A DNA stretch of 64,000 bases from Ferruginibacter sp. (lineage in GTDB: Bacteria > Bacteroidota > Bacteroidia > Chitinophagales > Chitinophagaceae). The stretch is taken from contig JAEUVU010000005.1 in assembly GCA_016786725.1 (NCBI GenBank), positions 270-64,269 of the forward strand. The letters are read 5' to 3'. Shown here piece after piece: positions 1,170-59,581 of the stretch. A program made the position numbers and the translations under genes. The notes beneath the pieces were generated by a model that was not told the origin of the DNA, did not search any database, and saw only the letters and a program-made list of their open reading frames with translations. Within the stretch, counting starts at the first letter, position 1. Every line of letters starts with the position of its first letter.

Positions 1170-2351
1170 CTATGCACTTAAGCTTGTTACAAAATTTTCC
1201 TTTTCTGTTTTAAGTTTTGAGAAAGCCTGTTCTAGATCGTTGATAAGATCATCCACCTCTTCCAGTCCAACACTAAGCCTTATAAGGCTGTCAGCTACAC
1301 CGGCGGCACGCCGCTTTTCAGCAGGAATGCTTTTGTGCGTCATTTGTGCAGGATGGCAAAGCAGGCTTTTTACACCGCCCAAACTTTCGGCCAGTTTAAA
1401 ATACTGGGTGTTGGTTACAAAATCTGTTGCAGCTTTTTCTGTATCATTCTTTAAAGTGAAAGAAACGATACCGCCAAAACCTTTGCTTTGTTTTTTTGCT
1501 ATTTCGTGGTTGAAATGATTTTTTAAACCCGGATAATAAACTTTATCAACTGCAGGATTTGTTTCTAAATATTCAGCAACAGCCTGTGCATTGCGGCAAT
1601 GTTGTTGCACACGCAGGTGCAATGTTTCAATCCCACGTATAACCAGCCAGCTATCGAAAGGAGCCAGGATAGCACCGCTGGCATTTTGTATGAATTTTAT
1701 TTTTTCGCCCAGCTCTTTTTCTTTGGTAACAACAAGCCCTGCGATAAGATCACTATGGCCCCCTAAATATTTAGTGGCGCTGTGAATCACAATATCAGCT
1801 CCCAGCGTGAGAGGCTGTTGTAAGGCTGGCGATGCAAAAGTGTTATCCACGCAAAGCAAACACCCATGGGCCTTTGCCGCCTGTGCAATGGCCCGTATGT
1901 CGCTTACTTTTAATGTTGGATTGGTTGGAGTTTCTAACCAGATCAGTTTTGTATTTGGAGTTAATGCGTTGAAAACATTGGCTGCATCGGTTGTATCAAC
2001 ATAGTTTACAGTGATGCCGAATTTTTCGTAGATGTGAGTGAAGAGACGAAAGGCGCCACCATAGATATCATCAACTGCAACGATCTCGTCGCCGGCTTTT
2101 AAAAGTTTTACCACCGCATCAATGGCTGCAAGCCCGCTGCCGAAAGCAACGCCCACGCTTCCTTTTTCAAGATTGGTAATAATGTCTTCTAAAGTTCCTC
2201 TTGTTGGGTTATTACTACGGGCATAATCATATCCTTTGTTTACACCGGGTGCTTCCTGCACATACGTACTTGTTTGATAAATGGGAACACTGATTGCTCC
2301 GGTTAATGGATCTACGGGAATACAGTGGATCACTTGTGTTGCGTTGCTCAT
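1170..2351 (-). CDS. Cys/Met-metabolism PLP enzyme (cystathionine gamma-synthase / beta-lyase family)
   Basis: ORF 1170..2402 trimmed to ATG 2351 (MSNATQVIH). Has the PLP-lysine motif HSATKYLGGHSD and the YARSNNPTR block. A SAM-I riboswitch lies directly upstream. Confidence 0.88.
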   Translation of the reverse strand: MSNATQVIHCIPVDPLTGAISVPIYQTSTYVQEAPGVNKGYDYARSNNPTRGTLEDIITNLEKGSVGVAFGSGLAAIDAVVKLLKAGDEIVAVDDIYGGAFRLFTHIYEKFGITVNYVDTTDAANVFNALTPNTKLIWLETPTNPTLKVSDIRAIAQAAKAHGCLLCVDNTFASPALQQPLTLGADIVIHSATKYLGGHSDLIAGLVVTKEKELGEKIKFIQNASGAILAPFDSWLVIRGIETLHLRVQQHCRNAQAVAEYLETNPAVDKVYYPGLKNHFNHEIAKKQSKGFGGIVSFTLKNDTEKAATDFVTNTQYFKLAESLGGVKSLLCHPAQMTHKSIPAEKRRAAGVADSLIRLSVGLEEVDDLINDLEQAFSKLKTEKENFVTSLSA

Positions 2352-2446
2352 CTTGTTATTTTTTAATTTTTGATGAATGATTGTTATACAGGTTCTGAAC
2401 AATCACTTAACAAGTGAGCAAGGTTACCGGAGGAGTTTTTGTGTTA

Positions 2447-3416: not shown

Positions 3417-6284
3417 ATGGCAAAAGTTAAGAAAGCTTCTATAGAAGAAACTATTGATAAAGATTTTATTGAAGTATTTGGGGCAAAGGAACACAACCTT
3501 AAAGATGTTGACATCAAAATTCCCAAGAACAAACTGGTTGTTTTTACCGGTGTGAGCGGCAGTGGAAAATCTTCGCTGGCCTTTGATACCATTTACAACG
3601 AAGGGCAGCGCAGGTACATGGAAAGTTTTAGTGCCTATGCCCGGCAGTTTGTGGGAGATATGGAACGGCCCGATGTAGATAAGATCACTGGCCTTTCTCC
3701 TGTAATTTCTATTGAACAAAAAACAACCAACAAAAATCCACGCAGTACTGTTGGAACGGTTACAGAAATTTATGATTTCCTCCGCCTGCTGTATGCAAGG
3801 GTGGGAGAGGCTTACAGCTACAACACCGGCAAAAAGATGGTGAAGTTCAGCGAAGAAGAAATTGTAAACAACATCTTTGAAAAATTTAAGGATAAAAAGA
3901 TTAGTTTACTGGCGCCTTTGATAAGAGGAAGAAAAGGGCATTACCGGGAACTGTTTGAAGACATCCGCAAGAAAGGGTATTTAAAAGTGAGGGTTGATGG
4001 TGAAGTGATGGACCTGAAACCGAGGATGCAGGTTGACCGGTATAAGATACATGATATTGAAGTGGTGGTTGACAGGATGGCTGTTACGGATGATATGAGA
4101 GTGAGGTTGAGCCAAAGCGTACAGAAAACTTTACAGCTTGGTAAAGAACTGATGTTTCTGCTGATCAATGACGATGATAAAGTGGTGCAGTACAGCAAGC
4201 AACTGATGTGTGAAGAAACAGGGATTAGTTACGAAGAACCATCGCCCAATGCATTTTCATTCAATTCGCCTTATGGTGCCTGCGCTACCTGCAGGGGCTT
4301 GGGTAATGTTTATACTATTGATATGGATGAAGTATTACCTGATACTTCTAAAACAGTTGCAGAGGGAGGTATTGCCCCGCTTGGCGAAGAAAGAGATGCA
4401 AGTGTTTACCAACAGGTGGTTGCATTTGCAAAAAAACATAAGATCAACCTGAAAAAGCCAGTCAGGGATTTACCCAAAGCACAACTCGATCTGCTCTTAT
4501 ATGGCGACCAGGGAATTAACCCTGACCTCGAATTGGATATGAGTGATGAAACCGTGCCGCAGGAATATACCGGGAGTTATGAAGGAATTATTCCCATGCT
4601 TAAAAGATGGTTTGGCTCTGCACAAAGCACCGACGGTTTGCGCAGCTGGGTAGAAGGGTATATGCAGCTGGCACCCTGCCCGTCATGCAACGGAACAAGA
4701 ATAAAAAAAGAGAGCCTTTGGTTTAAAATTGATAAAAGGAATATTGCTGAACTAAGCAATTTAAATTTAGATAATCTTGCCGCATGGTTTGATGGAATAG
4801 AATTGCGCCTGAGCGATAAGCAAAATGCAATTGCCAAAGATGTTTTAAAAGAGATAAGAGAGCGTTTGCAATTTTTGCTTGATGTCGGTCTTACATATCT
4901 TTCCCTCAACAGGTCCTCTAAAAGCCTTAGTGGCGGCGAATCACAACGTATCAGGCTGGCTACACAGATCGGATCTCAGCTTCAGGGCATTACTTATATT
5001 TTAGATGAGCCTAGTATTGGCTTGCATCAAAGGGATAACCAACGGTTGATAACGGCTTTACGGAATTTGAGAGATATCGGCAACAGCGTTTTGGTGGTTG
5101 AGCACGACAAGGATATTATGCTGGCATCTGATTACTTAGTTGATATAGGCCCGAAGGCCGGTAAGCATGGCGGTGAAATTGTGGCGATGGGAACCCCGCA
5201 AACGATTTTAGATTCTAATTCAGAAACATCTCAGTATTTATTGGGAACAAAAAGTATTGCTGTACCAGAAGAAAGGAGAAAAGGAAACGGAAAGTTTATT
5301 GAATTAAAAGGGGTGAAGGGAAATAATTTACGGAACGTGGATGTTAAATTTCCCCTGGGTAAATTGATATTGGTTACCGGTGTAAGCGGCAGCGGCAAAT
5401 CAACCTTAATAAATGAAACACTATACCCGTTGCTGAGTAAGTATTGCTATGATTCAAAAGCAAACCCACTGGAGTATAAAACTATAAAGGGTTTGGAGCA
5501 GATAGATAAAGTGATTGAAATTGATCAGAGCCCCATTGGAAGAACGCCGAGAAGCAACCCGGCAACTTACTGCGGATTCTTTACTGATATAAGAACTTTG
5601 TTTGCGATGGTGCCCGAAGCAAAAATAAGGGGCTATACAGCAGGCCGCTTTTCTTTTAATGTAAAAAGCGGCAGGTGCGATGTTTGCGAGGGTGGTGGTA
5701 TGAGAGTTATCGAAATGAATTTTTTACCCGATGTACATGTGCATTGCGAAAAATGCAATGGCAGAAGATACAACCGGGAAACACTGGAGATCCGCTACAA
5801 AGGAAAATCCATCAGCGATGTGCTGGATATGACGGTTGACGAAGCAGTTGAATTTTTTCAGGCAGTGCCATACATCTACCGTAAAATAAAAGTGCTGCAG
5901 GATGTTGGGCTTGGCTATATAACACTTGGCCAAAGCGCTGTAACCTTGAGTGGCGGCGAAGCACAACGTGTTAAACTTTCTACCGAGCTGGGTAAAAAAG
6001 ATACCGGTAAAACATTTTACATACTGGATGAACCCACAACCGGGCTTCACTTCCAGGATATAAAACTTTTGCTTGATGTAATAAATAAACTTGTTGACAG
6101 GGGCAATACCGTACTGGTAATTGAGCACAATTTAGATGTAATAAAAGTAGCCGATCATATTATTGATATCGGGCCAGAAGGTGGCGATGGCGGTGGCAGG
6201 GTTTTATTTGAAGGGGTACCGGAAGAACTGGTAAAAGTGAAAGAAAGTTTTACCGGGAAATATTTAGAGCCTGAGCTTGTTTAG
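3417..6284 (+). CDS. uvrA: excinuclease ABC subunit A
   Basis: 955 aa with two ABC modules (GVSGSGKSSL and GVSGSGKSTL Walker A; two LSGGE signatures) and CxxC zinc-finger pairs (CATCRG, CPSCNG, CDVCEG, CEKCNG). Confidence 0.97.
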   Translation: MAKVKKASIEETIDKDFIEVFGAKEHNLKDVDIKIPKNKLVVFTGVSGSGKSSLAFDTIYNEGQRRYMESFSAYARQFVGDMERPDVDKITGLSPVISIEQKTTNKNPRSTVGTVTEIYDFLRLLYARVGEAYSYNTGKKMVKFSEEEIVNNIFEKFKDKKISLLAPLIRGRKGHYRELFEDIRKKGYLKVRVDGEVMDLKPRMQVDRYKIHDIEVVVDRMAVTDDMRVRLSQSVQKTLQLGKELMFLLINDDDKVVQYSKQLMCEETGISYEEPSPNAFSFNSPYGACATCRGLGNVYTIDMDEVLPDTSKTVAEGGIAPLGEERDASVYQQVVAFAKKHKINLKKPVRDLPKAQLDLLLYGDQGINPDLELDMSDETVPQEYTGSYEGIIPMLKRWFGSAQSTDGLRSWVEGYMQLAPCPSCNGTRIKKESLWFKIDKRNIAELSNLNLDNLAAWFDGIELRLSDKQNAIAKDVLKEIRERLQFLLDVGLTYLSLNRSSKSLSGGESQRIRLATQIGSQLQGITYILDEPSIGLHQRDNQRLITALRNLRDIGNSVLVVEHDKDIMLASDYLVDIGPKAGKHGGEIVAMGTPQTILDSNSETSQYLLGTKSIAVPEERRKGNGKFIELKGVKGNNLRNVDVKFPLGKLILVTGVSGSGKSTLINETLYPLLSKYCYDSKANPLEYKTIKGLEQIDKVIEIDQSPIGRTPRSNPATYCGFFTDIRTLFAMVPEAKIRGYTAGRFSFNVKSGRCDVCEGGGMRVIEMNFLPDVHVHCEKCNGRRYNRETLEIRYKGKSISDVLDMTVDEAVEFFQAVPYIYRKIKVLQDVGLGYITLGQSAVTLSGGEAQRVKLSTELGKKDTGKTFYILDEPTTGLHFQDIKLLLDVINKLVDRGNTVLVIEHNLDVIKVADHIIDIGPEGGDGGGRVLFEGVPEELVKVKESFTGKYLEPELV

Positions 6285-8180: not shown

Positions 8181-8208
8181 GCCCCCTCTATCTCCCCCGC
8201 AAGGGGAA
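8181..8208. repeat. G/C hairpin module, long subfamily (GCCCCCTCTATCTCCCCCGCAAGGGGAA)
   Basis: Direct reading. Near-identical layout to 46211-46239 and to the in-CDS copies at 21269 and 21428. Confidence 0.7.
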
Positions 8209-8284
8209 GAAATTTTGAAGATAAAAGCTGAGATGATGCTTTGCATAAAGTGTAATTTAAAAGATTAAAAGTTGCCCATTCCAG

Positions 8285-17035: not shown

Positions 17036-18886
17036 CTATCCCTTCAAATCAAGCCTTATCTGCAACTCATCAAACTGTTTATCAGCAATACCTGAAGGCG
17101 CATCCAGCATCACATCCCTTCCTGCATTATTTTTAGGGAAGGCGATAAAATCACGGATGGTTTCATTGCCACCGATGATGGCACAAAGACGGTCAAAACC
17201 AAAAGCAATACCACCATGCGGTGGCGCACCATATTCAAAAGCGCCGAGTAAGAAACCGAATTTGTGTTGCTGTTCTTCTGCATCCATACCTAAGGCGGCA
17301 AACATTTTTTCCTGCAGATCTCTTTGATAAATTCGAATTGAACCGCCCCCAACTTCATTACCATTCAACACCATATCATAAGCATTGGCTTTAATGTTGG
17401 CATATGGATGTTCTAAATATTTATCAAGATCTTCAACCTTGGGAGAATTGTTTATCATGATATCAACATCAGAAGGCTTGGGACTTGTAAACGGATGATG
17501 CCTTGCCACCCAGCGCCCGGCACCGCCGCCATCCTGGTCCTCAAGCGCAAATTCAAACAAAGGAAAATCTATCACCCATAATAATTTAAATTCATCTGGC
17601 TTGCGCATGCCCAGGCGTTCGGCCATTTCCATACGCAGAGCACTGATGGCTTTACGGGTCCTTTCTTCGGTGCCGGCCAAAATTAAAATCAGGTCGCCGG
17701 CATTTGCATTGGCTGCTGCTGCAATGGCTTTTAATTTATCTTCTGTATAAAATTTATCTACACTGCTTTTAAATGTTCCGTCGGTATTGCATTTAATAAA
17801 TACCAAACCTTTCATACCAATCTGCGGACGCTTTACCCACTCAGTCAGCTCATCGGTTTGCTTGCGGCTATATTCGCTGCAGCCAGGCACAGCAATGGCA
17901 AGAATAGTCTCAGCCCCCCAGCCCCCCAAAGGGGGGATTGAAAGCAACTCTCTGCTTACCTCAGGCTCCTTACCAATAAATAAATGAGAAGGGAATTGAA
18001 GATTGCAAACTTTCATATCAAAACGGATATCCGGTTTGTCGTTACCATAAGTGAACATGGCATCTTCCCAGGTCATACGTTCAAGTGTTTCTGTATAGTC
18101 AATACCTTTCACATCTTTAAGAATGCGTTTTACCAAACCTTCAAACATATTGATGATATCGTCCTGCTCTACAAAAGCCATTTCGCAATCTATTTGTGTA
18201 AACTCGGGCTGGCGGTCGGCACGAAGGTCTTCATCCCTGAAACATTTTACAACCTGGTAGTAACGGTCGTAACCGCTCACCATCAGCAATTGCTTAAATG
18301 TTTGCGGAGATTGTGGTAAGGCGTAAAACTGTCCGGGATTCATTCTTGAAGGAACCACAAAATCCCTGGCGCCTTCCGGTGTGCTTTTGATCAGGAAAGG
18401 CGTTTCAATATCCATGAAATTATTTTCATGCAGGTAATTTCTTGCAGAGCGGTTTACCTGGTAACGCAATTCTAAATTTTTCTTCACCGCATTTCTCCTC
18501 AGGTCCAGAAAACGGTATTTCATTCTTATGTCGTCGCCGCCATCGGTATCATCCTGTATGGTGAAGGGTGGAACGGCTGATTTATTCAGAATCTTAAATT
18601 CACTTACAACAATTTCAATTTCACCGGTTGGTATGTTTGCATTCTTGCTGCTGCGTTCATTTACTTTACCGGTAACCTGCAACACATATTCTCTTCCCAA
18701 TGGATTAGCATCCAGGGCAGCATTTAGTGTTTCTGAAAATAATAACTGGGTAATACCGTAGCGGTCACGCAGGTCAACAAAAGTGATGCTGCCGAATTTA
18801 CGAACGGTTTGTACCCAACCGGCCAGGGATACTTCTTTATTGATATCGGTTAATCTTAATTCGCCACAGGTGTGAGTTCTGTACAT
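17036..18886 (-). CDS. aspS: aspartate--tRNA ligase
   Basis: ORF trimmed to ATG 18886 ([11 protein letters not shown]). Class II motifs [32 protein letters not shown] and the C-terminal PPHGG.AFG.DR block. Confidence 0.95.
17923..17947. repeat. G/C hairpin module, short subfamily, in frame inside aspS
   Basis: GCCCCCCAGCCCCCCAAAGGGGGGA. Coding strand reads TCCCCCCTTTGGGGGGCTGGGGGGC, translated IPPLGGWGA. Confidence 0.75.
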
Positions 18887-18926
18887 AATCTGAATAAAAT
18901 TGAGCGGCAAAGATAAATTAATTGGG

Positions 18927-19325
18927 TTACATCGTCTCAGCCTTCTTTTTATAAATGACCTTAAAAACGAGATAATAATATGCAAGGATAAGGATGCCAA
19001 TAACAAAAGGTATAATGGCAATGTATTTATATTCAATACCGGCATACACCGGCAGTTTATCAAACGAAAAAAATTCGCTGATCATCCAGTAAGAGTTGGC
19101 AGCTATCCAGAAAACGATGGCCCAGTTATGGCAAACCTCACTTACATATTTCCGGTTTTTAATTGAAATGATGATGGCAATGACCAGGGTAGGAAATATC
19201 ATCGCTATGCCCAGTGGTTTCCAAACCATACACCAGCTGATGTCTTTCAGCAGCCAGAAAATAATATGCATATTTTCCATACGGCGAAAACGGAGTGGGA
19301 TATTGTAGGTTTGTTCGGTTGACAT
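18927..19325 (-). CDS. small integral membrane protein (about 4 TM), unknown function
   Basis: ORF start is TTG at 19331, with ATG at 19325. Hydrophobic segments. Ends 40 nt upstream of aspS on the same strand. Confidence 0.5.
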
Positions 19326-19340
19326 AGCCAATAATTTATT

Positions 19341-19480
19341 GCACGAATTTTACGAATTACACAAATTACACGAATTATGTGACACGAATTGTGCGAATTA
19401 CACTAATTGAAGAATGCGGAAATAAAAACACGAATTGGCTTCTGAACCAATTCGTGTAATTCGTTTTAATTTGTGTAATT
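19341..19480. repeat. dense array of ACGAATTACAC / AATTCGTGTAATT words (direct and inverted)
   Basis: At least six direct copies (CACGAATT at 19342, 19352, 19369, 19383, 19393, 19429) followed by inverted copies (AATTCGTGTAATTCGT 19449-19464, AATTTGTGTAATT 19468-19480). Confidence 0.8.
19424..19457 (-). terminator. terminator-like hairpin after the A2M gene, built from two inverted repeat words
   Basis: ACACGAATTGG - 8 nt - CCAATTCGTGT (11-bp stem). The minus strand then reads TTTTTATTTCC. Confidence 0.65.
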
Positions 19481-19482
19481 GT

Positions 19483-22400
19483 TTACTCCACAATAACTCT
19501 TATTCCCTCGCTGTGTGAAGTAAACTCCGGTGCATACATACACTGTATGGTGGTAATGCCATTGCTGAAGTTACCGGCATGTGTAACAAACATGGGATAC
19601 TCAAAAACATAACTGCCCCGGTTTAACCAGCCAAAGAAGAAGTTGGTGCTTGCATCTTTGGTGCTTTCATAATAACCCAGGCCCCCCTGGTATTTATAAC
19701 TGCTTAAAACATTTACCGGTTCCATACAGGCGGCACGCATGTCTTTCATGTGTACGTATTCCATGTCACGGTCAACTTTGAGTTCGATACGCACTTTTAC
19801 TTTATCACCCACTTTTAATTGAGCGCCATCTTCCAAAGCAACCAATACCGGACCGGTTGGTGAATTTTTTTCGATGAATAATTTCTTCACCAGTTTTAAT
19901 GGTGTTTCGGCCGGGGTTATTTTGTCGAGGTCTTCAAAGTATTGCCAGTAAACGGAACCCCAAGCCCCCCCACCCCCCATGGGGGGATTTTTGGAGTCTG
20001 ATGATTTTGTACTTACTGATATGTAGCCCATGTCGGCTTTTACTTTATCGCCTTCTATTCTTTCTTTGAAGTAACCAGTGCCGGCTTCGGTCTTGTCATC
20101 TGTACTATTTATTACTGTGCTACCTAATGTTATTGTTACGGCATTATCCTGTTCCAACCAGACACTTGCTTTGTTTCCCCCTTGGGGGGCGGGGGGGCTT
20201 AGCAACAATGCGTAGCAGGCTTCTGCTGTGGCTTTGGTGGTCTTCCAGTTTTGTGTTTGCTTTTGTTTGAGTAACCATGTTTTAAGGTCATCAACAGTTG
20301 TGTTGTTCTTGTCAATATCCATAAAGGCTTCTATCATCATTGCTTGCGACTCAATAGGGGCCTGGTGCCAGTAGTAGCCGCCGGTTGTCCATTCTTTCCA
20401 GTACATGCCCAGTTCTTCTTTGTTAATTGAGTTTTCTTTTAAAGATCTGATGATGGCTTTTGGAGTTGTGGCATCATTGCTTCTGTGCAATGCAAGTGCT
20501 ATCATCGCCTGCATGTATTTGCTGTTGCTGAGCCAGTATTTTTTTGCCTGTCCTGTATAATAGTTGTAAGCCGTTTGCGAAGCTGCTGCAACTTTATACT
20601 CAGGAAAGAAGCTGCGCATATACAAATACTGGATAGCAATATAGCTTAGATGATTCTCTTTAAGTTTTGCTTTGTATTTGATGAGATCGTCATAATCTTC
20701 TTTTATCTTTTTATCAAGATAAGGAACCGCTTTATCAACTACAGATTTTATGGATTGATAATTATCGCCCGTTAAAGCTTCCAGTTTTCTTAAATGGCCG
20801 ATACCGGTTGTGATGTATTGCGTCATATAGCGGTCATCGGCCCCGCCTTTGAACCAGGTAAAGCCGCCATTGCTGCTCTGCATTTCTTTCAGTTTGTTGA
20901 ACGCTTTGCTTTGCTCTGCACTCATTTTAACCATATCAAACAGTAAGGCAATATTTTTCTTTTGCTGTGCTTCGTTTTGTGCTTCCAGTACCCAGGGGGT
21001 TTCCTGCAATAAGGCTGATTTCAATTCTTCATTTTTTTGCAGGTTAGAAAGCAAGGCTGCGGTATCCACAGTCTTCCATTTTTCAAACACCGTTTTAATT
21101 TTTGGCATAGAACGGCTGATATAACTTGCCAGCGTATTTGCATAATAGCGATTGAATGTTTGCTCGGCACATTCGTAAGGATATTCCATTAAATAAGGCA
21201 GCGCCTGCACTGCATACCAGGCCGGGTTGCTGGTGTATTCAACAGTTAAGGCATGGTTGGTAAGTGTAGCCCCCTCCCGGCCTCCCCCGGCGGGGGAGGA
21301 GTTTAGCAGCTTTTCAAATTTGAAAGTTTTACTGCTAACGCCACGCATGTTCAATGGCATGCTTTCTGTAACCAGCATGCGGTTGGTTAAAATGGGGATC
21401 GCCATTTCTTCACCATCAGAAAATTCTGCCCCCTCCAAACCTCCGCCGGCGGCGGGGGCTTTTGAAACAGCTTTTATCCTGTAAGTGAGTGCTGAGTTAA
21501 AATTGAACGGTATTTCCATCGGGAATTTTACCGCCTGGCTTTGGCCGGGAGCTACAGTAAAATACTGGTTTGGAAAAACATTCTTGAACCAGCCATCAAT
21601 AGGTTTGTTGGTTGCCGCATCCAGCAATTCAAGCGTTGCAACACCGGTAACTTCTTTCTCACCCAGGTTTACAATTTTTGCGCTGAACTCCATGTTATCA
21701 CCCTCCCTCATAAACCTTGGCGCATTAGGTTGCACCATCAATGGTTTTTGTGTTACAACAGTTTTTGTACTATAAGCAGAGGCCATATCTTTTGTGTGGG
21801 CCAATGTCATCAGCTTCCATTGTGTTAATGCTTCGGACATGGTAAATGAAAATTCAATATTGCCTTCAGCATCTGTTTTAAGATCGGGAAAAAAGAATGC
21901 AGTTTCGTTAAAGTTTTTGCGGATTTGTACTTCAGACCCATTTGACTTTGTTGTAGCCCCACTTATTGTATCTTTTATATCAAGCAAACCGTCTTTATCG
22001 TTATCTAATTTAACCGAAGATTTTCCACGTACTTGTATGCCTGCGACTTTTCCTGCCAAAGCCTCATTTACATTTCCTGCCGCAACTGGACTTGGGGGCG
22101 GAGGTGGAGGAGGTGCACCAGATTCCGCATAAGATCTCTGCGCAATTTTCATATTTCGTCCTCCACCATATCTATCATATTCATAGTAATCAGACATCAA
22201 AAGCCTGTCATAAGATTTATCCGGTACAGTTAAGTATTCACGATCTGCTCCGTTTAATTCATCCGAATTCACTTTTCCAAATCCATTGATGTTCCAGTAA
22301 ATGGTATTGTATAGAACGGGCCATACATTTGGTTTGTACCAGCTATGCGCTTTAAACTGGTCGAGGCTTGCATCATACATGCCTGCCAGCATTTCGGCAG

Positions 22401-25400
22401 CAACTTTTTCTCCTTTATTACCTGTTATTTTTATTTTCCATTTTTCTTCGGCGCCGGGTAATAATTTATCACGGAAAGTCTCATAACTGATCTGCAGGTC
22501 TTTATTACTCCAGGGAATGCTGAACCCCTGGTTGCCTTTATAAACACGGTTGTGTTTTACAAAAGCATAGCTCATAGCCATGCCGCCACGGTCTGCTTCT
22601 GTTACCGGCTGTACAAAACCTGCAGGTTGAGTGTTGCTGACCGTTTTATAAGAAAAATTATTCGTTTTATCCATTTTGCTTAATGAATGAATAAGCCACA
22701 CATTATCGAAACCGGTTTTAATGTTGTAATTGATAGTTTCGCCGGGTTCTGCATTTCCTTTTGTAACCTCAAGTTTAACGGCATCGTAAATTCTTTCATT
22801 ATTACCGGTTAGCTGAATATATTTTTCGGCCTTTACCAATTCACCGTACTTGTCTTTTGTTACAGCAACAACTTTGTACCAGCCTGCCACAAACGGGAAA
22901 CCAGAAACAAGAAACGATGTATTTTCTTTTGTGCTGTCAGTCTTATCTAAAACTTTTTCACCTAAAGGCCATTTGTTTTGCTGGTCCTCGTCTTTATAAA
23001 TGTCATAAGGAAAATAGCCTTCGTATTCATTCTTACTCATCATAAACTGGTCGGGCATTTCCCAATACCTTTCCCGATAAATTTTTGTGGGTGATATTAC
23101 TTTGGTGATGGTGACATTCACACTTGCCTTTTCAAAAATATCATTGAGGTTGGTAGTTGAAATGCTGAGGTTTTTCAAACTATCAACCGGTAAGGTTTCA
23201 GGCATGTTGATGTTAAGTTGCAGCATTTGATAAGCAACAGCTACAGATGTATTGCCGCTTCTTGTTTCGCCATTGATATCTGTAATGTCGGCACTTACTT
23301 CGTAATAAAAAGTTGGCTGACTTGCCTTATCAACCGTTTCATCAGGTATTGCTTTGAATTTAATTTTGAATTCACCCTTTGCATCGGTTTTGGTTTCCCC
23401 GTTTGTTATTTCCATTTCTTCATTACCGCCCGATGGGTATCTTTTGCCTCCCCAACCTCCCGAATACATCGGGACAGGCCACCAGACAGGATAGCGTACT
23501 TTACGAACCACACGGTATTTTACACTGGCGCCATCAATATTGTTTCCGGCATAAGCTTTGGCTGTACCGGTTACTTCAACACTGTCGTTGATGCGGTAAG
23601 TGCCTTTTGGTTTTTGTATCTCTGTAAAAAATTTAGGGCGCTTGTATTCTTCTACGCTAAAGCTTATATAAGATTTGGTAGCCGTATCAAACAGGCTAAA
23701 ATTTCCGTTCATAACACCTTCGGGCAATTTGAACGATCCTTTGTAGCTGCCGAATTCATTGGTTGTAACGGTTAGTTCTGCTGATTTTTGACCATTGGCA
23801 TCTTTTAACTGAATGGTGGTTTTAAAACCAGGGATCACCGCAGTTTTTGATGCATCTTTTTCTTTTGAAACAACCAGGCCTTTAAAATACAATAATTGTC
23901 CGGGCCTGTAAATGCTGCGGTCGGTAAATAAAAATGTTTGTGGTTTATATTCAGGCACGTAATTATTATAAACATAGCTGGAATGGTTTTCATCAAGGAA
24001 TAATTCATCCGCTCCGTTAATAACCTGTACCATAAAATTCCGGTAGTTGTCTTTGCTGTCTTTTAGTTTGAAATACCCGTTTTTATCCGTTGTATATTTC
24101 TCGTGTTTTACTTCTTCGTATTTGCTGGTGTTGTAATCGTATTTAGATTCCCAGATCTGGACCGTTGCATTGCCAAGAGGCTGGCCATTATCCCTGTCAA
24201 GCACATAGTATTCGTTGGTGCTGGTATGTATGTAGCTGATATTGCTTACATAGGTTTGTTGTTTGGCAATGATGTTTTTTGTAAGAGCAAACCCCGGATC
24301 AATACCAGCCAGTACCAGGTAAGTACCGTTTGGTAAACCATCAATTTTTATTTCGGTACTATGCTCCTGGTAATCCTGCAGGTCGGGCAGATTGATGCTC
24401 CAGCTTTTAACCGGCTTCATCTCTGTGTAAGCTTTCCAGAGTTTCTCATATTCTCTACGGTCCAGGTTCTTCAATTCTTCCCTGGTAGTTTTTATCACAC
24501 GCAGGTAAAGCGTTTTGATGTTCTTATATTTTACCAGGCTTCTGAAAGGCTGCATCGGTACATTTACCTGATCCGTTTCAATATTTAATGATGGTTGTTC
24601 AATTTGCATAACAGCATTCTTTGCGTTAATACCACCTTCAGATTTTGGGAACCTGGCATATGCTGATTCAAATAATTCCTTTGCCCTTTTTATCTCGTAC
24701 TGGTTTTCGGTTTTTGTGAGTGCCTCATACTGTTGTCCACGTGATAAATAGATGTTGCCACGCAGGTACATGGCCTGTGCCACAGCAGGGTTGGCTGGAT
24801 ATTTTTGTTCGATTGCAAGCAATGCTTCTTCATACAGCTTTTCTTTATTTTCAAGTACGGCATTGGTGTGTACAAAATTTAAGCGTATCAGGTCAGCATC
24901 AATCAATGCATCAGCATTGGCATCTGCCAAATGAAATTTTAAAATATCCTGGAAAAGCAGGAGCGCTTTCTGTTGCAATGAAGCAGTATCTTTTGTTTTA
25001 AAAGAAGCATTGATAAAATCAGCAGCTTTTGTAAATGCAGCCGCATCATCTATTTTAAACTGGTAGGCCGGTTTAATTATATCGTTTTCATCATTGGTGA
25101 AAAACTCAATGGCCCTGTGTGCTAAAAAATCATACAGGGTAGGGCGCAGCTGGCGGGTGTTTTCTCCTTTGATAAGAATGGCATCAAGACCATCTAATTT
25201 TGTATTTTTTAATAGCGGTTCGTTTTGAAGGGATGCTTTATATAGTTTACTGATGGTTGCATATAATTTATTAATGCTCCAGGTAGTAATGTCTTTGCTT
25301 TTTTCCTGTGCCAGTTTGGTGCGGTTATAAAATTTCCAGCGGTTGTTTTGCAGGTATTGCCAGAACATTTCGGCATACATACTTTGCAGGATATTTTTAG

Positions 25401-25710
25401 CCGGGGCTTTTGCTTTTTCGATCAGTGTGTCCACAAAAAAAATATTGTTCTCCTGGCTGTCTTCTTCTACCATGTTGCGGTATTTGATCTGGTACATACT
25501 GGCTTTTATCTGCTGGGCATCGTTATTTTCTTTTATGGCCAGGTTATAAATGGCCAGCACTTCCTGCAAAGCAGATTTGGTGAGCCCTTTCTTTTCAAAC
25601 GCTTCAACCTTTTTCCAGTTTTTAGCGTAGTCGTTTTTTGTTTGTGCCATCAGATTTACAGTGATGCCGGTTATCATAAAAATCACCAGCCATATTTTTT
25701 TTATAAACAT
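19483..25710 (-). CDS. alpha-2-macroglobulin family protein, stand-alone, thioester-containing (2075 aa)
   Basis: ORF 19483..25737 begins with TTG, so I prefer ATG 25710 (MFIKKIWLVIFMITG..., signal peptide). MG-domain motif TDRSIYRPGQLLYFKG, post-bait motif IRKNFNETAFFFPDL, thioester YPYECAEQT. Confidence 0.88.
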   Translation of the reverse strand: MFIKKIWLVIFMITGITVNLMAQTKNDYAKNWKKVEAFEKKGLTKSALQEVLAIYNLAIKENNDAQQIKASMYQIKYRNMVEEDSQENNIFFVDTLIEKAKAPAKNILQSMYAEMFWQYLQNNRWKFYNRTKLAQEKSKDITTWSINKLYATISKLYKASLQNEPLLKNTKLDGLDAILIKGENTRQLRPTLYDFLAHRAIEFFTNDENDIIKPAYQFKIDDAAAFTKAADFINASFKTKDTASLQQKALLLFQDILKFHLADANADALIDADLIRLNFVHTNAVLENKEKLYEEALLAIEQKYPANPAVAQAMYLRGNIYLSRGQQYEALTKTENQYEIKRAKELFESAYARFPKSEGGINAKNAVMQIEQPSLNIETDQVNVPMQPFRSLVKYKNIKTLYLRVIKTTREELKNLDRREYEKLWKAYTEMKPVKSWSINLPDLQDYQEHSTEIKIDGLPNGTYLVLAGIDPGFALTKNIIAKQQTYVSNISYIHTSTNEYYVLDRDNGQPLGNATVQIWESKYDYNTSKYEEVKHEKYTTDKNGYFKLKDSKDNYRNFMVQVINGADELFLDENHSSYVYNNYVPEYKPQTFLFTDRSIYRPGQLLYFKGLVVSKEKDASKTAVIPGFKTTIQLKDANGQKSAELTVTTNEFGSYKGSFKLPEGVMNGNFSLFDTATKSYISFSVEEYKRPKFFTEIQKPKGTYRINDSVEVTGTAKAYAGNNIDGASVKYRVVRKVRYPVWWPVPMYSGGWGGKRYPSGGNEEMEITNGETKTDAKGEFKIKFKAIPDETVDKASQPTFYYEVSADITDINGETRSGNTSVAVAYQMLQLNINMPETLPVDSLKNLSISTTNLNDIFEKASVNVTITKVISPTKIYRERYWEMPDQFMMSKNEYEGYFPYDIYKDEDQQNKWPLGEKVLDKTDSTKENTSFLVSGFPFVAGWYKVVAVTKDKYGELVKAEKYIQLTGNNERIYDAVKLEVTKGNAEPGETINYNIKTGFDNVWLIHSLSKMDKTNNFSYKTVSNTQPAGFVQPVTEADRGGMAMSYAFVKHNRVYKGNQGFSIPWSNKDLQISYETFRDKLLPGAEEKWKIKITGNKGEKVAAEMLAGMYDASLDQFKAHSWYKPNVWPVLYNTIYWNINGFGKVNSDELNGADREYLTVPDKSYDRLLMSDYYEYDRYGGGRNMKIAQRSYAESGAPPPPPPPSPVAAGNVNEALAGKVAGIQVRGKSSVKLDNDKDGLLDIKDTISGATTKSNGSEVQIRKNFNETAFFFPDLKTDAEGNIEFSFTMSEALTQWKLMTLAHTKDMASAYSTKTVVTQKPLMVQPNAPRFMREGDNMEFSAKIVNLGEKEVTGVATLELLDAATNKPIDGWFKNVFPNQYFTVAPGQSQAVKFPMEIPFNFNSALTYRIKAVSKAPAAGGGLEGAEFSDGEEMAIPILTNRMLVTESMPLNMRGVSSKTFKFEKLLNSSPAGGGREGATLTNHALTVEYTSNPAWYAVQALPYLMEYPYECAEQTFNRYYANTLASYISRSMPKIKTVFEKWKTVDTAALLSNLQKNEELKSALLQETPWVLEAQNEAQQKKNIALLFDMVKMSAEQSKAFNKLKEMQSSNGGFTWFKGGADDRYMTQYITTGIGHLRKLEALTGDNYQSIKSVVDKAVPYLDKKIKEDYDDLIKYKAKLKENHLSYIAIQYLYMRSFFPEYKVAAASQTAYNYYTGQAKKYWLSNSKYMQAMIALALHRSNDATTPKAIIRSLKENSINKEELGMYWKEWTTGGYYWHQAPIESQAMMIEAFMDIDKNNTTVDDLKTWLLKQKQTQNWKTTKATAEACYALLLSPPAPQGGNKASVWLEQDNAVTITLGSTVINSTDDKTEAGTGYFKERIEGDKVKADMGYISVSTKSSDSKNPPMGGGGAWGSVYWQYFEDLDKITPAETPLKLVKKLFIEKNSPTGPVLVALEDGAQLKVGDKVKVRIELKVDRDMEYVHMKDMRAACMEPVNVLSSYKYQGGLGYYESTKDASTNFFFGWLNRGSYVFEYPMFVTHAGNFSNGITTIQCMYAPEFTSHSEGIRVIVE
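19964..19987. repeat. G/C hairpin module, short subfamily, in frame in A2M
   Basis: GCCCCCCCACCCCCCATGGGGGGA, translated NPPMGGGGAWG. Confidence 0.75.
20176..20198. repeat. G/C hairpin module, short subfamily, in frame in A2M, inverted orientation
   Basis: TCCCCCTTGGGGGGCGGGGGGGC on the plus strand, translated SPPAPQGGNK from the minus strand. Confidence 0.75.
21269..21299. repeat. G/C hairpin module, long subfamily, in frame in A2M
   Basis: GCCCCCTCCCGGCCTCCCCCGGCGGGGGAGG, translated SSPAGGGREGA. Confidence 0.75.
21428..21459. repeat. G/C hairpin module, long subfamily, in frame in A2M
   Basis: GCCCCCTCCAAACCTCCGCCGGCGGCGGGGGC, translated APAAGGGLEGA. Confidence 0.75.
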
Positions 25711-25834
25711 AATCAGGTATTTAATTACAAGATACAATTTGTACCTGTACCGTTAAATTAATCTTATCAGCTTTTAGATGTATTGCTGCATAACATTGCA
25801 CAATTTTGACTGCCTTTTTTCTTTAACTTTTCTT

Positions 25835-28680: not shown

Positions 28681-28706
28681 GCCCCAAATCCGCCAGCCGG
28701 CGGAGT
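28681..28706. repeat. G/C hairpin module (GCCCCAAATCCGCCAGCCGGCGGAG)
   Basis: Resembles the 21428 copy (CCTCCGCCGGCGGCGGGGGC). Abuts the mlaF-like start codon. Confidence 0.55.
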
Positions 28707-28749
28707 TTTTTTTTGACTCTAAATATTTTAGAGGGTTATAAAAAATCAT

Positions 28750-46210: not shown

Positions 46211-46239
46211 GCCCCACCTATCCTCCCCGGAGGGGAAGG
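46211..46239. repeat. G/C hairpin module, long subfamily (GCCCCACCTATCCTCCCCGGAGGGGAAGG)
   Basis: Direct reading. Parallels the 8181-8208 copy. Confidence 0.7.
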
Positions 46240-46357
46240 AAACAAGGTAGAAAAAAGTGAAGTGTATGTGTTTCTTTATATACCCAACGTCATTAATTCT
46301 ATTTAACTTCGGTGGCGTCGTACTCTTGCACTTCATATCTATATTGAACTTTTTTTG

Positions 46358-46999
46358 ATGAAGAAATTTATACCATACTTACTTTTTGCTGCTTTATTTT
46401 TTTTACCTGCTGCTGCCAAAGCCCAGTTTGAAACTTTTAAAGATTCTGTTGTGCAACTCTACGGTATTGTAATGACGGCTGACAGTTTAAAAGGGCTGGA
46501 GTCTGTAACCGTAATGATCAAAGGACAAAACAGGGGAACTATTACCAATAGCAAGGGCGTGTTCAGTATTGTAGGTTTAAAAGGGGATGAAGTGGTTTTT
46601 ACAAGTATAGGTTATAAACCCAAAACAATTTCCATTCCCAAAAACCTGGAAGGTAACCAGCACAGCATTATTCAGTTGATGGTGAATGATACTGTTTATT
46701 TACCTGCAACAATCATTAAGGCAAGGCCAACCCGTGCACAGTTTGAACGTGATTTTTTAAATGCTGAAATACCTGACGATTACATCACCGTTGCCCGCAA
46801 AAATAACAGTGAAGCCACCCGTAAGTTACTGGTTGCAACCCTCCCCCGGGATGGAAGAGAGAGCAGCAATAATTATCTGCGCCAAAATGCAAACAAGGCA
46901 TATTACACTGGCCAGGCGCCTCCCATGAATATCTTCAATCCTTTTGCCTGGGCCGAATTTATCAAGGCATGGAAGAGAGGGGATTTTAAGAGTAAATAA
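46358..46999 (+). CDS. carboxypeptidase-regulatory-like domain protein (secreted)
   Basis: ORF 46355 starts with TTG and an ATG follows at 46358. Signal peptide. LYGIVMTADSLKGLESVTVMIKG...GVFSI..LKGDEVVFTSIGYK is the CarboxypepD_reg pattern. Confidence 0.6.
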   Translation: MKKFIPYLLFAALFFLPAAAKAQFETFKDSVVQLYGIVMTADSLKGLESVTVMIKGQNRGTITNSKGVFSIVGLKGDEVVFTSIGYKPKTISIPKNLEGNQHSIIQLMVNDTVYLPATIIKARPTRAQFERDFLNAEIPDDYITVARKNNSEATRKLLVATLPRDGRESSNNYLRQNANKAYYTGQAPPMNIFNPFAWAEFIKAWKRGDFKSK

Positions 47000-47002
47000 A
47001 GG

Positions 47003-47055
47003 CCATACCCCAAACCCCCTGTCCCCCTTCCTTCAACTTCGCTCAGAAGGGGAAC
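47003..47055. repeat. GC-rich repeat (CCCCTTCCTTC...GAAGGGGAAC hairpin enclosing CTTCAACTTCGCTCAG)
   Basis: Direct reading. CTTCGACTTCGCTCAG also occurs at 6290-6305, after uvrA. Confidence 0.55.
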
Positions 47056-47125
47056 TTTAATTCATGCAGTCTTCTTCTGTTTTTGTTTCTTTGTTGTTTG
47101 AAGAGAAAATTATATAAGATAATCT

Positions 47126-47668
47126 ATGACACAATCTTCGGGCAATTCCCCCTTTAGGGGGGTAGGGGGCGCCTGTATTTTCTTAATTGGTTTTATGGGG
47201 AGTGGTAAAACCCACTGGGGCAAAATATGGGCCCAGCAGGCAGGCCTTGATTTTTACGATCTTGATGAACTGATTGAAAAAAGGGAAGCTAAAACCATTG
47301 CTGCCATTTTTGAAAAACAAGGAGAAGGATATTTCAGAAAAATTGAAACCGATACATTAAAAACTTTTGAAGGAAAAGAAAACTGCATCATTGCCTGCGG
47401 GGGCGGAACAGCCTGCTTTAATGATAATATGCAATGGATGAATGAGAATGGAACAACCATTTATCTTTATGCAACACCTTCCTGTATTTTATCAAGAGTT
47501 AAGGAAGAAAAAGACAAACGGCCGCTGATTAACAAACACAATGAAGCAGAACTGTTGTTTTTTATTGAGCAAAAATTAAAAGAGCGGGAACCGTTTTACA
47601 GCCAGGCAAAAATTACTTTACCGGTAACCGGGCTGAATGAAAAAAGCCTTTTAACCATTAACATATAA
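47126..47668 (+). CDS. aroK: shikimate kinase
   Basis: IFLIGFMGSGKT Walker A, DLD, CGGG. The N-terminal 16 residues contain a G/C hairpin module. Confidence 0.9.
   Translation: MTQSSGNSPFRGVGGACIFLIGFMGSGKTHWGKIWAQQAGLDFYDLDELIEKREAKTIAAIFEKQGEGYFRKIETDTLKTFEGKENCIIACGGGTACFNDNMQWMNENGTTIYLYATPSCILSRVKEEKDKRPLINKHNEAELLFFIEQKLKEREPFYSQAKITLPVTGLNEKSLLTINI
47147..47170. repeat. G/C hairpin module, short subfamily, in frame at the 5' end of aroK
   Basis: TCCCCCTTTAGGGGGGTAGGGGGC, translated SPFRGVGGA. Confidence 0.75.
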
Positions 47669-59507: not shown

Positions 59508-59581
59508 GCCGGGGTAGCTCAGCTGGTTAGAGCACAGGATTCATAACCCTGAGGTCGGCAGTTCAAGTCTGCTCCCCGGTA
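59508..59581 (+). tRNA. tRNA with CAT anticodon (elongator Met, or Ile2 if lysidine-modified)
   Basis: Hand-folded cloverleaf. Acceptor GCCGGGG/CCCCGGT, D arm GCTC-AGCTGGTTA-GAGC, anticodon loop TTCATAA, T arm GGCAG-TTCAAGT-CTGCT. CCA is not encoded. There is one A-C mismatch at the base of the anticodon stem. Confidence 0.88.

Follow-up and report, generated by a model that had tools for sequence, protein, structure and literature searches.

In a 64,000-nucleotide stretch of Ferruginibacter sp. DNA (hereafter the window; contig JAEUVU010000005.1), a single gene of the alpha-2-macroglobulin (A2M) family contains four short hairpin modules built of C and G runs, which are read in frame as Pro/Gly-rich peptides. 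Alignment with orthologous genes and structure prediction show the four modules to be non-native sequence in predicted loops of the protein. They are copies of a dispersed repeat, and we consider it probable that they represent the nuclease-less ends of a family of mobile elements associated with DUF559, a nuclease family whose genes are physically associated with modules of this kind in other genomes.

Hairpin modules in the A2M gene and elsewhere in the window

The host gene lies on the minus strand (19483..25710; 2075 aa, intact, as judged from its open reading frame [ORF], translation and a Pfam search), within an ORF spanning 19483-25737 whose start is likely at 25710. The Pfam search identified bMG10, A2M and MG2 domains in the protein, and the thioester motif CAEQ was found in its translation, so that all the features that define the A2M family (MG domains, A2M domain, bMG10 and the thioester CxEQ) are present. 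All four module sequences are located in this ORF at the coordinates given in the original prediction, and they are free of stops, being visible in the translation as NPPMGGGGAWG, SPPAPQGGNK, SSPAGGGREGA and APAAGGGLEGA.

By aligning the copies from the window and from 80 related A2M loci in one orientation, we derived a shared architecture of 23-32 nt, which in the G-rich orientation consists of a C-rich arm, a loop of 2-5 nt, a G-rich arm, a spacer of 1-5 nt, and a GGGGGC tag. Two types can be distinguished. In type A (modules 1 and 2, and the copies in aspS and aroK), the arms and tag are TCCCCCC / GGGGGG / GGGGGGC with a spacer of 1-2 nt; in type B (modules 3 and 4, and the copies at 8181 and 46211), they are YCTCCCC / GGGGAGR / GAGGGGGC with a spacer of TTTG, TTTA, CCGG or similar. 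The conserved end GCCCCC(TC)/GAGGGGGC is found in all 28 local copies and in >100 genome copies. Module 1 (19964..19987, minus strand) is of type A, with the sense strand TCCCCCC-AT-GGGGGG-T-GGGGGGGC and the core peptide NPPMGGGGA, and module 2 (20174..20198, plus strand) is a reversed type A copy, in which the C-rich strand is the sense strand and the core peptide is SPPAPQGG. Module 3 (21269..21299, minus strand) is of type B, with the sequence CCTCCCCC-GCC-GGGGGAGG-CCGG-GAGGGGGC and the peptide SSPAGGGREGA. Module 4 (21428..21459, minus strand; peptide PAAGGGLEGA) is a type B variant, with an outer GCCCCC...GGGGGC, an inner GCCGCCGGCGG palindrome and a spacer-tag GGAGGTTTGGAGGGGGC. The simple form of C-run, loop and G-run that had been proposed for all four does not hold for module 4, where the outer GCCCCC/GGGGGC surrounds the inner GCCGCCGGCGGC palindrome.

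Further copies had been reported at five positions, four of which belong to the family. A type A module lies in aspS (17036-19063, minus strand) at 17913..17937 on the minus strand, with the peptide SIPPLGGWG, and another in the N-terminal extension of aroK (47126-47668) at 47146..47170 on the plus strand, where it is in another frame (NSPFRGVGGA). Judging from the sequence, the aroK module is probably translated, since there is no alternative start codon between the module and the P-loop. Two copies are intergenic: a type B module at 8181..8209 on the minus strand (CTTCCCC-TTGC-GGGGGAG-ATA-GAGGGGGC), which on the plus strand lies 1 nt past the TAA closing a 105-codon ORF (context TAA-A-GCCCCC; 6 in the automatic tally), and a type B-like module with 4-base runs at 46211..46243 on the minus strand (GCCCC-ACCTATCC-TCCCC-GGA-GGGGA). 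The fifth reported position (28681..28714) is a loose, terminator-looking relative with a GCCCC tag, a CCGCC/GGCGG hairpin and a T9 tract, and it does not match the family pattern. In addition, a probable diverged module of uncertain membership was found at 47015..47060 (minus strand), 15 nt past the stop of an ORF at 46355-46999; it has a CCCCC tag followed by a CCCCTTC...GAAGGGG hairpin with a long loop and falls outside the strict pattern.

The module stems have folding energies of -14 to -23 kcal/mol. Hairpin z-scores against shuffled sequences were uninformative because the shuffles retain the C and G runs. A G-quadruplex or i-motif reading was also considered from the sequence only and dropped, as there are not enough G and C runs and the hairpin that would compete is much more stable.

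The window has a G+C content of 41-42%, and the proteins that match it best are named Ferruginibacter (Chitinophagaceae, Bacteroidota). Six distinct sites match the pattern CCCC-N2-6-GGGG-N1-9-GGGGGC in the window, and 100 dinucleotide-preserving shuffles gave a mean of 0.00. Stretches of 16 nt in which 15 or more are G/C group into 9 clusters, compared with 0.58 in mononucleotide shuffles. Across the window and 1.2 Mb of related loci, there are 26 hairpins of the form C5+-loop-G5+ and 0 of the mirror form G5+-loop-C5+. The pattern count, the G/C clusters, the asymmetry of the hairpins and the orthologue alignment together rule out a chance or native origin.

Non-native status of the modules in A2M and aspS

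The A2M orthologue set comprised 120 proteins that are 66-83% identical and were aligned at 100% coverage. At site 1, PP..GGGG is present in 58 of these proteins and the remainder have PLNQTATS-type loops. Site 2 is in the empty form LLL|GGNNW in 105 proteins and reads LLL-SPPAPQ-GG.. in the other 15. Site 3 is filled (NS-SPAGGGREGA-T) in 20/120, with NS-GSS-TT in most, and site 4 is filled in 15/120, with others having NSPSGDGG inserted in that loop instead. Peptides 2-4 are therefore insertions that have no counterpart in most orthologues, and the peptide at site 1 swaps with another loop. The empty sites are also visible at the DNA level, in codon alignments of metagenomic orthologues. The modules often take the place of a few native codons instead of only lengthening the protein; at site 3, the native AGC GGC AGC AGT ACA is exchanged for 33 nt.

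When the C-terminal 815 residues were modelled with AlphaFold, all four sites fell in stretches with a predicted local distance difference test (pLDDT) score <50 between secondary-structure elements, with site 1 in a low-confidence predicted loop between two strands and site 2 after the last helix of the thioester domain. A single-sequence search against solved A2M structures gave no match on which the sites could be mapped, and the alignment from a profile search was confined to the MG2 region and a short part of A2M, and did not reach the C-terminal part.

The copy in aspS gives a similar picture. Here a conserved segment, G-x-DFKVFDE, which lies where the GAD insertion domain begins to be entered, has given way to the module with almost no effect on length, and this segment is kept in 13 other aspS orthologues, down to 57% identity. 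Among 14 aspS orthologues aligned, the module is found elsewhere only in locus L064. Lineage-specific residence in frame within coding genes is thus a property of these modules.

A DNA repeat read in several frames

One and the same module is read as NPPMGGGGA in A2M, SIPPLGGWG in aspS and NSPFRGVGGA in aroK, and in reverse as SPPAPQGG. Among 69 copies in long ORFs, all six combinations of frame and orientation are present; the sense strand is G-rich in 50 and C-rich in 19, and 31 of the 69 use the SPxGGxLEGA frame. The use of several frames and both orientations, together with the intergenic copies, indicates that the unit is a DNA repeat and not a native peptide. The output is Pro/Gly-rich both ways because the reverse complement of CCC is GGG and no frame of the core contains a stop. 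The frames, the intergenic copies and the orthologue alignment bear out the original proposal that a dispersed repeat, not native A2M sequence, has colonised coding sequence in both orientations.

It has been necessary to weigh an origin in place, either by selection for Pro/Gly loops encoded by CCC/GGG or by slippage or template switching at native GG codons. We find this very improbable and strongly disfavoured. Empty sites often already contain GGNGGN or TGGGG, and Pro/Gly loops are structurally benign, but the same bases outside the stem (the TTTG, TTTA and CCGG spacers and the GAGGGGGC tag) are found again in unrelated genes, between genes and in other orders, the modules are read in more than one frame, and the C-loop-G hairpins have no G-loop-C counterparts (26 vs 0).

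The distribution of the modules among A2M orthologues is patchy. On a neighbour-joining tree of the 120 proteins, the 15, 20 and 15 carriers at sites 2, 3 and 4 required 13, 16 and 15 parsimony steps, respectively, the same as under random relabelling, and occupancy is correlated between sites (s2-s3, p=5e-4; s2-s4, p=4e-4). The copies at one site have a spacer variant in common across lineages, namely CCGG/CAGG at site 3 and TTTG at site 4. Third-codon identity between loci in modules 2-4 is mostly ~60-100% (lowest 2/8), compared with 46-59% gene-wide. Judged by the flanks of site 3, the nearest neighbour of a carrier is another carrier in 16/20 cases, against 3/20 by whole-gene distance; this nearest-neighbour flank test was positive for site 3, weak for site 2 and absent for site 4, and a group-mean distance test for local shared ancestry of carriers was negative. 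The combination of same-site patchiness and flank co-conversion known from homing elements is thus found, strongly at site 3 only.

Overall, the module sites are old and common to many lineages, with linked flanking substitutions. The absence of phylogenetic signal, the correlated occupancy, the conserved third positions and the shared flanks suggest either that alleles pass from one background to another through recombination or a homing-like conversion, or that the nucleotide sequence is strongly constrained. They do not suggest random re-insertion.

Association of the modules with DUF559 nuclease genes

Translation of long ORFs that hold two modules revealed the association with DUF559. In loci L273, L260 and L298, an in-frame DUF559 domain (Pfam E ~1e-31 to 1e-33, with a weaker match to MTES_1575) lies between a C-sense and a G-sense module within a Mucilaginibacter leucyl-tRNA synthetase (LeuRS), an IcmF-like B12 mutase and a valyl-tRNA synthetase (ValRS), respectively. 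The insertions are 488 bp (L273), 637 bp (L260) and 459 bp (L298) long and are bounded exactly by GCCCCC...GGGGGC, and the ends of the L273 element form a perfect 31-bp inverted repeat. Locus L037, which was reached by A2M homology only, contains a LeuRS with a DUF559 element at a different site, and the LeuRS genes of L037 and L273 are each empty at the element site of the other.

DUF559 genes that were fetched by protein similarity alone are also flanked by modules (L321, L323, L325, L326 and L257). These genes lie between two subunit genes of an oxoacid:ferredoxin oxidoreductase (L321), between amylase genes (L323), in MetH (L326) and, in a Devosiaceae genome, between pccB and pccA (L257); the gene in L325 is flanked by a type A module resembling the aroK copy of the window. 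In L321 (2400-3000), the ORF of the upstream gene crosses the left module and stops just before the start codon of the free-standing DUF559 gene, and the downstream gene begins within the 3' end of the nuclease gene and runs through the right module. The element therefore supplies the junction sequences of both host genes.

An exhaustive profile search found 63,116 DUF559 cluster representatives, of which the best 150 were inspected. Among these 150, 48 are >300 aa with an internal domain, and the hosts of internal DUF559 domains include LeuRS, another class I tRNA synthetase, CinA, adenine deaminase, an epimerase, a SpoIID-like protein and type ISP restriction enzymes. Hairpin-type Pro..Gly peptides occur within 45 residues of the DUF559 domain upstream in 65/94 cases and downstream in 65/93, compared with 15/201 control windows. 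No Rfam intron match was found in the DUF559-bearing loci, and the DUF559 insertions contain no Pfam intein domain or visible intein motif.

The modules of the window resemble the ends of these elements. Module 3 and the right terminal repeat of the ValRS element (L298) have the 20-mer GGGGGAGGCCGGGAGGGGGC in common, Ferruginibacter-like copies in L004 and L057 are the same as the L273 end except for the loop, and the module 1 peptide NPPMGGGGAWG resembles DPPLGGGGAG at the right junction of the DUF559 insert in CinA. As in miniature inverted-repeat transposable elements (MITEs), the terminal inverted repeats of an enzyme-encoding element, here the DUF559 insertion, are shared by pairs of modules that stand apart from it. 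A nuclease ORF in the occupied allele, as expected of a homing element, is absent from A2M but is found in the full-length elements of other genomes.

DUF559 belongs to the Vsr/DUF559/DUF2726 clade of PD-(D/E)XK nucleases (PMC3424549), and the Vsr-like homing endonuclease I-Bth0305I, of the same fold clade, cuts a pseudopalindromic target (PMC3239194). That Vsr-like nucleases include a proven homing endonuclease with such a target (PMC3239194) lends some weight to the main rival explanation, in which the modules are an independent REP-like family (after repetitive extragenic palindromic [REP] sequences) spread by other means, and the DUF559 gene homes into a module or a module pair and becomes flanked without mobilising the modules. 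Module pairs free of a nuclease are common in intergenic DNA, and solo modules are far more numerous than DUF559 genes in the sampled DNA, as this explanation would have it. Three observations count against it: the L273 element, with its perfect inverted repeat and exact tag bounds, looks like one unit; the alternative LeuRS site (L037 vs L273) is cleanly empty and has no module; and no other mobilising enzyme was found. We therefore regard homing into pre-existing repeats as unlikely, though clearly the strongest competitor to an origin of the modules as element ends.

Several small DUF559 ORFs (P0245, P0262, P0284, P0300 and P0310) are named methionine synthase, guanylate kinase or cyclase in databases. 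In the contig of P0245 (L326), the DUF559 ORF lies inside a fragmented methionine synthase gene.

Genomic habits of the module family

The type B pattern was scanned in one genome per species, with taxa counted by hand from the record titles of the listed matches. Among the matches listed, 56 of 80 named genomes belong to Bacteroidota, including Mucilaginibacter, Prevotella, Bacteroidaceae, Chitinophagaceae, Ferruginibacter, Draconibacterium and several Flavobacteriia, and Devosia, Rhodocyclaceae, Chloroflexus and Nitrospira have related sub-families. Although the type B search pattern did not include it, the CT completing the stem is almost always present. At loci with GC<0.5, 30/72 copies fall in ORFs of at least 150 aa, compared with 85% of random positions, so that intragenic copies are depleted yet frequent. 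Inverted pairs are common, 25-270 bp apart and with the tags outermost. In the C-rich orientation, 23/126 copies start between -1 and +8 nt from where an ORF of 100 codons or more ends, ~15x the 1.2% of random positions. These habits are REP-like.

Proximity to stop codons, with copies beginning 0-4 nt past them, is also what would be expected if the modules were not selfish but functional structures kept by the host, acting as terminators or 3' stabilisers after genes and as antisense terminators inside them. CTTTT(T)G often follows the hairpin in its C-rich orientation, module 1 on the plus strand (antisense to A2M) is the top terminator-like site of the region, and the stems are conserved at the nucleotide level. 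By contrast, modules are present or absent at one site among close orthologues, the aspS copy has replaced a conserved segment, a T4 tract accompanies only 21-30% of copies, A2M has its own separate terminator at 19428-19457, and the modules are physically linked to a nuclease gene. Host-kept function is thus an improbable explanation of the family as a whole, and the modules could be ends of DUF559-associated elements even if some intergenic copies have a function. Within genes, a T4 tract after the hairpin was found in 1/19 sense-orientation copies (C-rich strand sense), compared with 15/50 antisense copies, the rarity that would be expected from a purging of terminator-competent copies within genes.

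The REP-like habits also raise the possibility of classical REP/REPIN sequences mobilised by a REP-associated tyrosine transposase (RAYT; HUH Y1), which we judge to be about as improbable as a host-kept function. The hairpin with a terminal tag, the inverted dimers, the proximity to ORF 3' ends and the occasional intragenic copies are as in REPs (PMC3733652), RAYT subclasses occur in Bacteroidetes (PMC6006769), and RAYT genes adjoin A2M in L024, L033, L078 and L320. However, the tag is GCCCCC, not GTAG or CGTC; five Bacteroidota RAYT genes are flanked by another hairpin, with the core CTAACAGGT (CCTAACAGGTTT-N3-AAACCTGTTAGG in L320); and no RAYT-like ORF was found in 120 stretches (<=8 kb) around modules. 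A link to RAYT is unsupported, since the RAYT genes of L024, L033, L078, L319 and L320, which form one subfamily, do not have G/C-module flanks.

RAYT-type (Y1_Tnp) genes lie directly beside A2M in distant relatives, at L024 (rc 3601-4194), L033 and L078, and at L320 (3001-3591; Flavobacterium aestivum), and in F. aestivum the gene is located between A2M and a PBP1c-like gene. In Aequorivita (L319:3001-3570), a gene of the same RAYT family lies between unrelated genes.

Matches to type A in viral contigs (L081-L160) were mostly polyC/polyG junctions at contig ends, with few genuine copies; these junctions are probably assembly artefacts. In one viral-contig locus, L146 (210-8930), CCCCCCACCGGGGGGCAGGGGGGC occurs seven times on the same strand within 10 kb, among repeats rich in CTCTAT.

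Proposed mechanism and its support

Physical association of the modules with DUF559 is observed directly, and from it we propose the following scheme. In other Bacteroidota, two inverted modules, with the tags outermost, form the terminal inverted repeats of an insertion of 0.46-0.64 kb whose sole cargo is a DUF559 nuclease, and such an insertion resides in frame within housekeeping genes or between the genes of an operon. The copies in A2M, aspS and aroK would be nuclease-less ends, standing to the full element as solo REPs or MITEs stand to a transposase gene. Their survival inside genes may depend on three properties: CCC and GGG being reverse complements, either orientation is Pro/Gly-rich and stop-free; the modules would be placed in surface loops; and copies able to terminate the sense transcript would be selected out. 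The DUF559 nuclease, acting on the hairpin or the tag, is the candidate agent of spread, possibly through homing-type copying into empty alleles. Spread of this kind would explain why the same sites are patchily occupied, why flanks are linked and adjacent codons replaced, and why the modules look young in sequence. The modules are presumably of no use to A2M itself.

We think it probable on balance that the four A2M modules are non-native repeat copies of this origin. More tentatively, and with somewhat less than even confidence, we suggest that DUF559 is the nuclease of a kind of mobile element not previously recognised, characterised by hairpin ends that code for Pro/Gly, in-frame residence without splicing, and shed ends, including the A2M modules, that occur in loops and at gene 3' ends across Bacteroidota and probably in other phyla. 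There is a substantial chance that the DUF559 unit deserves a class of its own.

A number of observations weigh against an origin of the modules as ends of DUF559 elements. For the source genome, the link to DUF559 would be made by module similarity alone: a six-frame search with hidden Markov models detected no DUF559 in the 64-kb window or in ~1 Mb of closer Ferruginibacter-like loci, an absence that is expected if there are one or few gene copies per genome. The association also lacks a direction, as the nuclease gene could home into palindromic repeats that were already in place. L273, L260 and L298 were chosen for carrying the motif, so that only the arrangement around DUF559 is unbiased. 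Modules 1 and 2 form an inverted pair of canonical geometry, but the intervening 187 bp is native A2M, and therefore the two did not arrive as one unit. No target-site duplication is visible in comparisons of filled and empty sites, some of which show replacement of native bases, and no target consensus was found beyond a tendency to GG-containing codons and to TAA-A before the tag. Simple transposition would not predict the loss of native codons seen at several copies. Chimeric metagenome assemblies could inflate the patchiness among orthologues, and the AlphaFold model is poor overall (mean pLDDT 57).

The repeat described here has a clear architecture, a range across a phylum and a physical link to one abundant nuclease family. 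Recognition of hairpins by a Vsr-like nuclease and homing-type spread between strains are directly testable, as is the possibility that hairpin-encoded Pro/Gly linkers let a selfish gene ride inside tRNA synthetases. In practical terms, gene calls are broken by the modules and the nested nucleases, which also introduce homopolymer tracts within genes and give surface proteins lineage-specific loops.

Other features of the A2M gene and the window

A poly-proline tract in A2M, APPPPPPPSP (window ~22080-22125), falls within the part of the A2M alignment that varies most in length; it is coded by mixed CCN codons and is outside the hairpin family. The PVPMYSG insert (window 23458-23478) was considered as a fifth polymorphic A2M insert and rejected as a member of the G/C family, having another hairpin, TCCCGA-tgtat-TCGGGA; the insert is shared only with locus L007 and three protein orthologues. 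A search of the window against Rfam identified only an S-adenosylmethionine (SAM) riboswitch and a tRNA, with no match at the modules. The riboswitch (2549-2658) is upstream of a gene for a pyridoxal phosphate (PLP) enzyme of Cys/Met metabolism (1170-2402, minus strand), and the single tRNA gene is at 59508-59581.

Comparison with known systems

The original prediction compared the modules with Rickettsia palindromic elements (RPEs). RPEs are ~100-150 bp long, fall into the consensus families RPE-1 to RPE-8, and are confined to Rickettsia. Like the modules, they reside in frame in either orientation, are tolerated at protein surfaces, are also intergenic, and can occur more than once per gene. 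RPEs are unrelated to the modules in sequence and are not known to have a nuclease partner. The modules differ in being 23-32 nt long, in consisting of C/G runs with a GGGGGC tag, and in being spread across Bacteroidota, linked to DUF559 and found in a Ferruginibacter-like host, so that they do not fit the length, consensus or host of RPEs. The analogy is apt in that in-frame palindromic repeats are tolerated in loops, but four additions are needed beyond it: the replacement of codons, the old shared sites, the REP-like family that spans a phylum, and the DUF559 terminal repeats.

Yeast mitochondrial GC clusters and the double-hairpin elements of Allomyces are likewise short, G/C-rich hairpins in A/T-richer genomes. 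They include optional in-frame copies (var1) and occur at the borders of mobile endonuclease ORFs. These elements are, however, organellar, unrelated in sequence, and associated with other endonuclease families.

REP/REPIN sequences are, like the modules, G/C-rich hairpins of 20-40 nt with a terminal tag, which form inverted dimers and lie near ORF 3' ends (PMC3733652, PMC6006769), and in-frame intragenic copies of REPs occur in repair genes and tRNA synthetases (PMC3733652). In REPtrons, as in the DUF559 elements, a nuclease gene lies between inverted copies and most copies are solo (PMC3733652, PMC6006769). The modules share with REPs the short dispersed stem-loop downstream of ORFs and the inverted dimers, but not the GTAG or CGTC tag of the REP super-families, in place of which they have GCCCCC, nor a cognate RAYT. 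In contrast to REPtrons, the DUF559 elements encode a PD-(D/E)XK nuclease instead of an HUH Y1 transposase, and the nuclease unit nests in frame in host genes.

Homing endonucleases of the I-Bth0305I type (Vsr-like, EDxHD) resemble the DUF559 elements in fold group, in being selfish, and in their patchy occurrence at fixed sites in conserved genes. Known Vsr-like homing endonucleases are either located in group I introns or inteins, which are removed by splicing, or encoded by free-standing phage genes (PMC3239194, PMC2677866). By contrast, DUF559 is read through as an internal domain that is joined to its host protein by hairpin-encoded Pro/Gly linkers.

Our literature search, whose coverage did not extend to subscription journals, found neither this repeat nor nested DUF559 elements described. 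In-frame palindromic repeats (RPEs and some REPs) and nuclease genes flanked by cognate repeats (REPtrons) are already known. What is new here is the GCCCCC tag, the extreme brevity of the modules, DUF559 as the candidate enzyme, and the in-frame nesting of a nuclease without an intron or intein.

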